Positions 1-1,977 of a DNA stretch of 4,299 bases are shown piece by piece. The stretch's first letter is position 1, and the number at the start of each line of letters is the position of its first letter. The translations under genes and the position numbers were made by a program. The stretch lies in IMG/VR virus record IMGVR_UViG_2671180435_000005. One strand, written 5' to 3'. Origin of the DNA: a virus. Lineage: Duplodnaviria > Heunggongvirae > Uroviricota > Caudoviricetes. Under the pieces are notes generated by a model. The model saw only the letters and a program-made list of their open reading frames with translations, did not search any database and was not told where the DNA came from.

Positions 1-88
1 ACACTAAATCAGTAAGTTGGCAGCATCACCGTTTTAACGTTACTAATAAATCGTGAAACAATCTCCTCATTTGTTAGTATTTCAAACG

Positions 89-443
89 TCACCTTAAGTT
101 CGCTGCGGGTTGCNNNNNNNNNNNNNNNNNNNNNNNNNNNNNNNNNNNNNNNNNNNNNNNNNNNNNNNNNNNNNNNNNNNNNNNNNNNNNNNNNNNNNNN
201 NNNNNNNNNNNNNNNNNNNNNNNNNNNNNNNNNNNNNNNNNNNNNNNNNNNNNNNNNNNNNNNNNNNNNNNNNNNNNNNNNNNNNNNNCGTCGAACTTAT
301 CATTCAGACCAAATCCACTGTTCAGTGCATCAGCCACAAAATTTTTAACAAGCCAGGGATGTGCTTTTTCAAACTCCTGCGCCATCATGCCCAGTTCAAG
401 CAATCCACCAATCAGACTGATCTTTCCGAGGCCCTTTAATTTC
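89..443 (-). CDS. Probable 3' continuation of the tape measure ORF (alternatively the start of a separate downstream tail gene); frame unresolved across N gaps
   Basis: Between the two N runs (291..443) only one minus-strand frame is open, and it reads as plausible protein (KLKGLGKISLIGGLLELGMMAQEFEKAHPWLVKNFVADALNSGFGLNDKFD). That frame is offset by one from the tape measure frame above the 47-nt gap. After the 175-nt gap it ends at TGA 91..89, but another minus frame stays open from 113 to a stop at 11..9. AT content rises left of about position 90, which fits a gene end near there. Confidence 0.4.
114..288. other. Run of 175 N (unresolved or masked sequence)
   Basis: Directly visible in the sequence. 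Its length is not a multiple of 3, so reading frame cannot be carried across it. Confidence 1.
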
Positions 444-1977
444 NNNNNNNNNNNNNNNNNNNNNNNNNNNNNNNNNNNNNNNNNNNNNNNTGATTCTGGG
501 CGACTGTTGCCGCACGAATACTTGCCACCGCCTTCACACCAATATACAGGGCAGAAACCGTTGCTATTGTTTTTACTGCCTGTTCCCATCCCCCCATTGC
601 TCTGACAACCTGATCAACCTCCTGCCAGACTTTTTTCACAACCGGACCGACCGTTTCCCAGTTATCAATTATGAGATATGCACCACCGACGAGAAGCGCA
701 ATTAATCCCTTTGCCGGCGTCATATTCATCACGCTACCCATGATTTTTGTTATGCGTGTCAATGTGCCAATCGCCACGCCCATCGTCAGTAATGCCGCAC
801 CAGTTTTCGCGATGGTTTTTACGACCTCAGGATTTTCTCTGACAAACGTGCGCACTTCTTCCAGAAAAGGCTTCATCTCTTTTATGCCTTCATTGAGTGA
901 AGGCAGGAAGGTTTCCCCCAGCGTGGAAGAAATCGCATTGATCTGGTTCTGCAGCAGCAACAACTGATTTTCTGTCGTCGCGGCACGGGCGGCATATTCT
1001 TTCTGCATTGAGCCGCCATACTGCTGCGCATCCGCCACACGATTAAAGTTGGTTCGCAACAAATCCAGATTCGTGAGCAGCGGCGCAATGGCCCCCAGGG
1101 ATTCCTTCCCGAACAGCGCTTTCAGCACAGCAGCCTGTTTTTCTTTCGGCACTTTTGCCAGAGAATCCAGTACGTGCAGCATGGCCCCGCGGGCGTCTTT
1201 CTGCATATCCGCCGCCAGTTTTTTCGGGCTAATGCGCAACGAGCGGAGCACTTTTTTCTGCGATTTGGTGGCAGAATCCCTCGCTGTCAGCGACAACATA
1301 AAATTCTTTATCCCCGTCGCAGCAATTTCTGACTCCACCCCCATTCCGGCAATGGTTGCCCCCATTGCGGCAATCTCTCCGGAGGCCACACCCGCAACAC
1401 TGCCTAAAGGGCCAATACGGGTCACAACATCAGAAATCTTTTTCGCACTTGCAGGACCGGTATTACCAAGATAGTTAATCTTATCCGCAAGCCCTGCCAC
1501 CTCTCCCTGTGTCAGTTTAAAGGCAGTGCGCCACTGCGCCATCATCTGACCGGATTCTTCTGCCGTGGTGTCAAAGGCCACGCCCATCTTCACGGCATCG
1601 TCAGTAAACTGCATCAGCTCGTCACGGGCGATACCAGCCTGACCACCCGCCGCCACAATTTCGGCGATACCTTCCGCCGACATGGGCAGTTCTGTTGACA
1701 GGTCGCGCACCTGCTCCGTCATTGCCTTAAACGCTTCCGGCGTATCCAGACCATCCACCACTTTCCGGACATCCGCCATTTTTGATTCAAGGGCAATGGC
1801 AGATTTGACCGGGAGCGCCAGCGCCCCCAGTACTGCGGTTCCGGCACCCGCTGCGCCCAGTAACAGGCTGGCAAACTCCTTTTTAAAACCTTTCAGCTGG
1901 CGCTGCATTCCCTTCAGCGGTGCCGATACCTTATCCACGGCAGTGATGATCGCCTTCAGCTGAAAACTGTCAGCCAT
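436..1977 (-). CDS. Tail tape measure protein, 5' and central part (3' end runs into an N gap)
   Basis: ORF of 513 codons with ATG at 1977..1975 preceded by GAGGAG (plus 1985..1990) at 7 nt spacing. The protein is Ala/Gly/Gln-rich with helical N-terminal and central segments followed by long hydrophobic stretches, and sits immediately after the chaperone gene, all typical of tape measure proteins. The ORF runs into the N run at 444..490, so the stop at 436..438 in this frame is probably an artefact of the gap. Confidence 0.8.
   Translation of the reverse strand: MADSFQLKAIITAVDKVSAPLKGMQRQLKGFKKEFASLLLGAAGAGTAVLGALALPVKSAIALESKMADVRKVVDGLDTPEAFKAMTEQVRDLSTELPMSAEGIAEIVAAGGQAGIARDELMQFTDDAVKMGVAFDTTAEESGQMMAQWRTAFKLTQGEVAGLADKINYLGNTGPASAKKISDVVTRIGPLGSVAGVASGEIAAMGATIAGMGVESEIAATGIKNFMLSLTARDSATKSQKKVLRSLRISPKKLAADMQKDARGAMLHVLDSLAKVPKEKQAAVLKALFGKESLGAIAPLLTNLDLLRTNFNRVADAQQYGGSMQKEYAARAATTENQLLLLQNQINAISSTLGETFLPSLNEGIKEMKPFLEEVRTFVRENPEVVKTIAKTGAALLTMGVAIGTLTRITKIMGSVMNMTPAKGLIALLVGGAYLIIDNWETVGPVVKKVWQEVDQVVRAMGGWEQAVKTIATVSALYIGVKAVASIRAATVAQNXXXXXXXXXXXXXXXXXN
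444..490. other. Run of 47 N (unresolved or masked sequence)
   Basis: Directly visible in the sequence. It interrupts the tape measure ORF, and the open frames on either side differ by one nucleotide. Confidence 1.

Follow-up and report, generated by a model that had tools for sequence, protein, structure and literature searches.

The tail genes of the Stx2e phage phiP27 and of the related E. coli and Shigella prophages follow one order, in which the sheath, tube, chaperone and tape measure protein (TMP) genes precede a gene for a DNA circularization protein. The TMP of phiP27 (L47, NP_543099.1) and its E. coli and Shigella orthologues (e.g. WP_000785377.1) are 649 aa long and carry the PF10145 domain. 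Beyond the TMP gene the two part ways, in that phiP27 has no gene between those for the TMP and the DNA circularization protein, whereas in the E. coli and Shigella prophages a 160-aa gene of phrog_5586 occupies this place.

A second point of reference is the short-read draft genome of Shigella sonnei, as described by Page et al. (2016; PMC5320598), whose 299 S. sonnei assemblies had a mean of 405 contigs. In drafts of this kind, made with Velvet, SSPACE and GapFiller, a gap of "an unknown number of bases (N)" is set wherever two contigs are joined, and the authors note that SSPACE and GapFiller, being greedy tools, "can lead to false joins" (PMC5320598).

We propose here that the frame changes seen near one end of a 4,299-nt stretch of DNA (the window, meaning the whole of the stretch that was analysed) are gap-length artefacts laid over one continuous 649-aa TMP gene, a reading to which we assign a probability of roughly 0.93. 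This gene is already catalogued in public databases, and the feature that drew attention to it is an assembly artefact, not biology.

Results

The window carries a phiP27-like tail module

The window carries the tail module (sheath, tube, chaperone and TMP) of a phiP27-like prophage remnant in S. sonnei, with all of its genes on the minus strand (Table 1). The sheath gene is followed by those for the tube, the PF10109 chaperone and the TMP, and then by DNA_circ_N and baseplate genes. The TMP gene lies where a tape measure gene belongs, coming directly behind the tube gene and a frameshifting chaperone and ahead of the baseplate genes. The tube gene is annotated as tail tube both in reference locus L001 and in phiP27. 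The chaperone gene has a slippery T_TTT_TTT at 2134-2128, from which the -1 frame stays open for 54 codons and stops at 1971-1969, overlapping the start of the TMP gene.

Table 1. Features of the window, and correspondence of its reverse complement to S. sonnei chromosome locus L004 (a full stop in the strand column stands for no assigned strand).
Feature	Position	Strand	Evidence or identity
IS1 outer end (terminal inverted repeat, insA side)	1..30	-	Contig breaks here
Downstream-gene fragment, 52 nt (~codons 20-37), cut by IS1	31..82	-	100% to L001 3001-3052 and L004 10348-10399
Junction	82..83	.	226 nt of all relatives absent (L004 10123-10348); microhomology 1 nt
TMP codons 607-616 (ATRSELKVTF) and first base of codon 617	83..113	-	100% to L004 10091-10122
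Scaffold gap, 175 N	114..288	.	True 146 nt, second base of TMP codon 558 through codon 606
TMP, last base of codon 506 to first base of codon 558 (KLKGLGKISL...NDKFD)	289..443	-	100% to L004 9790-9944
Scaffold gap, 47 N	444..490	.	True 30 nt in relatives, ATGGACAACGGCGGCAGGAAAAACAGGGCT in TMP sense; QWTTAAGKTG
TMP gene, start ATG at 1977, codons 1-495 and 2 nt	491..1977	-	100% to L004 8273-9759
Tail assembly chaperone	1969..2397	-	Main ORF 2062-2397, 111 aa; PF10109 (Phage_TAC_7), 29.8 bits; phrog_166
Tail tube protein, 118 aa	2397..2753	-	L004-L014 carry the identical gene, with PF10618 (Tail_tube)
Contractile tail sheath, 498 aa	2753..4249	-	PF04984, PF17481, PF17482
IS600 terminal 31 nt	4269..4299	.	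Contig breaks here
Aligned segment	Reverse complement 1-3809		L004 5951-9759, identical
Aligned segment, 47 N	Reverse complement		L004 9760-9789, truly 30 nt
Aligned segment	Reverse complement 3857-4011		L004 9790-9944, identical
Aligned segment, 175 N	Reverse complement		L004 9945-10090, truly 146 nt
Aligned segment	Reverse complement 4187-4218		L004 10091-10122, identical
Aligned segment	Reverse complement 4218-4299		L004 10348-10429, identical

The TMP ORF, read from its ATG with codon starts at positions divisible by 3, enters the 47-N run, and the mechanical ORF at 436-1977 that results is 513 aa long and ends in 17 X and an out-of-frame stop. Judged against L001 and L004, the frame homologous to the TMP lies one position off in 289-443 and a further one in 83-113, and from position 113 a 34-codon frame, ATRSELKVTFEILTNEEIVSRFISNVKTVMLPTY, runs to a stop at 11-9. 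The frame jumps and N gaps that a sequence-only reading of the window had reported are real, inasmuch as the ORF, the offsets and the 34-codon frame are all found in the sequence. The offsets are facts of the sequence and not statistical claims.

The window is a draft contig of Shigella sonnei bounded by insertion sequences

An exact look-up of the X-containing 513-aa product returned a single record, which identified the window as the entire 4299-nt contig CXBX01000236.1 of NCBI assembly GCA_001254035.1. Both N runs are already in this public record, whose called 513-aa product contains X residues. The window holds 4077 determined bases. Of ten complete S. sonnei loci compared with it, nine agree at every one of these bases and the tenth, L012, has one mismatch. 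The genomes at 100% include CP000038.1, the chromosome of S. sonnei Ss046. The window as a whole maps onto positions 5951-10429 of the chromosome locus L004, and 2065 blocks of the collection, complete S. sonnei genomes among them, list its exact sheath protein, with the longest carrier contig only 2-5 kb in 1888 of these blocks.

Both ends of the contig lie in insertion sequences. Positions 1-30 recur unchanged at L003 1501-1530, where an annotated IS1A transposase starts 26 nt further in, and at L004 10400-10429, directly upstream of insA at 10455. This end is multicopy: a 113-nt query containing window 1-30 was matched in 4685 of 5426 E. coli genomes, at a median of 9 places per genome, and an exact terminus next to insA and present in many copies is what marks an IS1 terminal inverted repeat. 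The other end, 4269-4299, has exact matches in L009 at two copies of IS600 (5951 and 12078), and the adjoining element is annotated in E. coli genomes as an IS3-like element IS600 family transposase. Contigs of Shigella drafts ordinarily break at such IS1 and IS600 copies, and the window is a short-read draft contig of S. sonnei, bounded by repeats and typical of its kind.

Both N runs are longer than the sequence they replace

What do the two N runs conceal? The 30-mer ATGGACAACGGCGGCAGGAAAAACAGGGCT and a stretch of 146 nt lie between the same flanks in all 19 gap-free loci, namely E. coli FDAARGOS_944, ten S. sonnei chromosomes and eight further S. sonnei draft contigs, and phiP27 likewise has 30 and 146 nt at these sites. 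Twelve further E. coli matches span 1695 nt against 1712 nt of the query, that is, 17 fewer. The N length disagrees with the real length at both sites while the flanks are 100% identical, and the N runs stand in the deposited record of a contig that ends in repeats, as befits scaffold gaps. The two sites are not AT-rich, and a search for repeats near them gave only chance matches of 14-25 nt.

The excess of N is 17 nt in the first case and 29 nt in the second. Since each excess is 2 modulo 3, the apparent reading frame moves one step per gap. In the gap-free relatives, the 30 hidden nucleotides complete residues 496-505 (QWTTAAGKTG) and begin codon 506, and neither hidden stretch has a stop in the TMP frame, which continues through both N-hidden regions. 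In otherwise identical sequence free of gaps, the TMP gene is one 1950-nt ORF of 649 aa whose only stop is codon 650, and its product is 649 aa long in E. coli FDAARGOS_944, in phiP27 and at all S. sonnei loci. The full protein matches PF10145 (PhageMin_Tail) over residues 88-290 at 152.8 bits (cut-off 33.2; E 1.4e-44), phrog_28 (tail length tape measure) at 4.3e-144 and phrog_17727 over residues 219-648 at 3.1e-121. At least 1000 contigs carry the exact 649-aa sequence, entered there as phage tail tape measure protein [Shigella sonnei].

The sequence-only reading had offered two accounts of the first gap, either that its true length was not 47 nt or that the TMP ended within it; the former is borne out by the 30 nt found at 19 of 19 loci, and the latter fails for want of a stop. 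That reading had also set beforehand, as what would decide the boundary, a gap-free single ORF from 1977 to a defined stop, and this is the ORF of 649 aa described above. The true length falls within the larger of that reading's size estimates, 630-655 aa, and the smaller, about 513 aa, is the artefactual ORF ending in X.

A third defect lies beside IS1

At the 82/83 junction the window lacks 226 nt, which hold the last 33 TMP codons and the stop, a 67-nt spacer and about 20 first codons (59 nt) of the downstream gene. The sequence-only reading had not noticed this defect. With the two N runs it makes three defects clustered within 600 nt of an otherwise perfect contig. The missing segment is an AT-rich island beside IS1, with a GC content of 0.30-0.38 against about 0.5, and the edge of this island, L004 10157/8 or 10165/7, is where at least 15 further short-read contigs of S. 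sonnei come to an end without foreign sequence; these breaks fall at TMP residues 628 and 631, SRR32961394 and SRR30346792 being two examples. Base composition would account for the missing stretch and for neither of the N-run sites.

The 52 nt left of the downstream gene correspond to a segment of L001 that lies inside hypothetical protein WP_000594909.1. In E. coli FDAARGOS_944 the gene encodes 160 aa, matching phrog_5586 (function unknown) at 9.7e-89, and it is absent from phiP27; the N-terminus of its product, MTVAILTSCC, looks like a lipoprotein signal. All of the S. sonnei chromosomes have IS1 at the same place in this gene (L004 10400) and an intact TMP gene. An IS1-mediated adjacent deletion, considered as a source of the 226-nt loss, is rejected, as the 52 nt of the downstream gene persist between the IS1 end and the junction.

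The 34-codon frame consists of TMP codons 607-616, a chimeric codon, 17 codons of the downstream gene, and six IS1 codons with a stop. It is open because the 226 nt with the real stop are missing and the join is in frame, and the reconstructed product first departs from the 649-aa TMP at residue 617. As a terminus of the TMP, which the frame at 113-9 had seemed to provide, it is to be discarded, being a composite of TMP, downstream gene and IS1 end; the view that the native end of the TMP is unreadable from the window holds, the stop codon lying in the missing 226 nt.

A 33-mer across the junction (window 66-98) had 0 matches in the genome, viral and metagenome contig collections, a blastn search with window 1-113 found no record across the 82/83 junction in 5426 E. 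coli genomes, and the reconstructed 640-aa fusion had no exact match in a collection of 15 billion proteins.

Discussion

In light of the TMP gene being continuous in every gap-free relative, two matters call for explanation, the origin of the 226-nt loss and that of the N runs. As to the first, the loss may be a real, strain-specific deletion that fused the TMP gene in frame to what is left of the downstream gene, with a 640-aa product ending inside IS1, or it may be a false join, and we lean slightly towards the latter. A real deletion is distinctly possible. The join carries no N and has a microhomology of only 1 nt. Scaffolders usually mark their joins with N, and gap fillers need read overlap; de Bruijn assemblers and overlap-based gap closers seldom invent such N-free joins. 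A join this clean suggests that the reads may contain the junction, which favours a deletion. In addition, S. sonnei genomes are prone to rearrangement, and contigs of other isolates break within the same 100 nt. Set against this are the absence of the junction 33-mer from all three contig collections and of the junction from the 5426 E. coli genomes, and the absence of the 640-aa fusion from the protein collection, in which the 649-aa form is found on at least 1000 contigs. The join also has two gaps as neighbours and lies close to IS1 in AT-rich sequence, where assemblies often break down, and the authors of the pipeline themselves caution about false joins (PMC5320598).

It is doubtful, though worth stating, that the deletion is real and that the breaks at residues 628 and 631 in at least 15 isolates are of the same nature, marking a site of recurrent structural change and not only of assembly failure. 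If this were true, the AT-rich stretch from the 3' end of the TMP gene to IS1 would be a site of recurrent change in the S. sonnei population.

As to the N runs, they are best read as scaffold gaps whose lengths were estimated and not counted, with 47 N standing for 30 nt and 175 N for 146 nt. Each excess (17 and 29 nt) shifts the apparent frame by one step, and the 226-nt loss then places TMP codon 616 in frame with the fragment of the downstream gene and, after it, with the IS1 end. By analogy with the drafts described above, the runs probably arose from a scaffolder and gap filler in a Velvet/SSPACE/GapFiller pipeline. The prefix CXBX did not occur in the accessible part of the accession table of that study (PMC5320598), and we found no paper that cites the accession.

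Three other accounts of the N runs bear weighing against gaps of estimated length. That they are masks laid by the data provider over real sequence is suggested by the description of the genome collection, which mentions a few stretches masked as N runs, and is nevertheless very improbable: masking keeps length, yet 47 N stand against 30 nt and 175 N against 146 nt, and the gene call of the public record itself already contains X residues. A further account takes the N lengths as accurate, so that real insertions of 17 and 29 nt would have made the TMP gene a frameshifted pseudogene. Decay of S. sonnei prophage remnants does occur and is seen in the IS insertions that surround this module; even so, this account is scarcely credible when all 4077 determined bases agree with nine out of ten complete S. 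sonnei loci, no relative varies in length at either site, gaps left by the scaffolder are stated to be of unknown length (PMC5320598), and two independent insertions would have to fall, by coincidence, exactly inside unsequenced stretches. That the TMP stops within the 47-N gap after about 500-513 aa, with a separate gene starting there, has next to no chance. All that speaks for it is the apparent change of frame across the gap and the mechanical 513-aa ORF, which the gene caller gave as well, while the 30 hidden nucleotides (QWTTAAGKTG) are identical at 19 of 19 loci with no stop or new start context, the next 155 nt carry on the same protein (residues 507-557) and the 513-aa product finishes in 17 X and an out-of-frame stop.

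With one continuous 649-aa gene as the preferred reading, what might the length of this TMP mean for the element? TMP length sets tail length, and this is sound as general knowledge. The importance that the sequence-only reading gave to tail length nonetheless has little weight for a S. sonnei prophage remnant broken up by IS4, IS600 and IS1. Upstream of the sheath gene, the S. sonnei locus has bamD, IS4, what remains of a prohead protease (a 120-aa piece with Peptidase_S78) and IS600; a head module is lacking on the sheath side in S. sonnei, and IS1 follows just after the TMP gene. Since so IS-riddled a remnant, without an adjacent head module, is not expected to yield particles, the question of tail length is moot, and no phenotype from TMP length would be expected for the S. 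sonnei element.

Our findings also carry a caution for the reading of draft genomes. The N runs in draft scaffolds are not true to length, and a change of frame across them is not to be taken for biology; in the present case a gap has spread a false, X-containing 513-aa "protein" into a public protein collection.

Compared with known systems, the window has the marks of Velvet/SSPACE/GapFiller drafts (PMC5320598): N runs of arbitrary length that differ from the true one, contig ends about 30 nt inside repeats, and a possible false join nearby. Its contig number, 236, fits a size-ordered numbering, and from these likenesses we infer the link to the pipeline. As in other IS1 and IS600 insertions in S. 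sonnei prophage remnants, its ends are exact termini (30 nt of IS1, 31 nt of IS600); both elements are annotated next to the same module in complete S. sonnei genomes, from which the window is no different in this respect. With phiP27 and the E. coli and Shigella orthologues, the window shares the series of sheath, tube, chaperone and TMP genes that leads to the DNA circularization gene, and its determined bases have a DNA identity of 96.9% to phiP27 and 99.8% to E. coli FDAARGOS_944; it is unlike them in its two N stretches of wrong length and in lacking the last 33 codons of the TMP gene.

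Results and discussion

Without any N to mark the place, the contig lacks 226 nt at window 82/83 (10123-10348 of L004, the Shigella sonnei chromosome locus used as coordinate reference) that are found in all relatives. The loss takes away the native stop codon of the tail tape measure protein (TMP) gene and joins TMP in frame to a fragment of the downstream gene. Such a loss may stem from a false join in the assembly or from a deletion specific to this strain.

Among short-read contigs of S. sonnei from Logan and NCBI, at least 15 others (including the draft contigs L015-L022) end at TMP residue 628 or 631, that is, at L004 10157-10167, within the last 22 TMP codons. 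No IS sequence was found at the ends of these contigs, and GC content falls from ~0.5 to ~0.35 exactly at this break point. Recurrent coverage dropout or structural polymorphism could be the cause. Both ends of the contig studied here are IS termini (see table) and it therefore extends ~k-1 bases into the repeats, as a de Bruijn assembly at a k of about 31 would be expected to do.

Listed as a called gene in the protein collection is an artefactual 513-aa product (2323-3864 of L014, the contig CXBX01000236.1; window 436-1977), which contains 17 X and an out-of-frame tail and for which the collection records no Pfam hit. Through this product, the scaffold gap (a run of 47 N within the TMP gene) has now contaminated the protein database.

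Upstream of TMP, the chaperone gene carries a slippery heptamer from which the -1 frame can be read through 54 codons (translation of window 1969-2134, minus strand) to a stop at 1971-1969, so that its end overlaps the TMP ATG at 1977. Tail assembly chaperone genes classically use a programmed frameshift, and the heptamer and open -1 frame are this arrangement.

Features of the tail module and contig ends
Feature	Window	Other loci	Strand	Remarks
Slippery heptamer T_TTT_TTT	2134-2128		minus	perfect; zero frame of chaperone gene
IS1 terminus	1-30			30 nt
IS600 terminus	4269-4299			31 nt
phrog_5586 gene	31-82	L001 (E. coli FDAARGOS_944) 2628-3110; L004 10290-10399		160 aa; function unknown

In S. 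sonnei chromosomes, the tail module adjoins clpB, rluD, and bamD, and ahead of it lie IS4, a 120-aa Peptidase_S78 fragment, and IS600 (L004-L013, 1-6000); the prophage has therefore lost its head side. In E. coli FDAARGOS_944, the sheath gene is split by ISEc60.

In the E. coli and Shigella prophages, the phrog_5586 gene, whose protein has a lipoprotein-like N-terminus, lies between TMP and the DNA circularization gene, and in all S. sonnei loci it is interrupted by IS1 after about codon 37. The related Stx2e phage phiP27 differs from these prophages in being without this gene.
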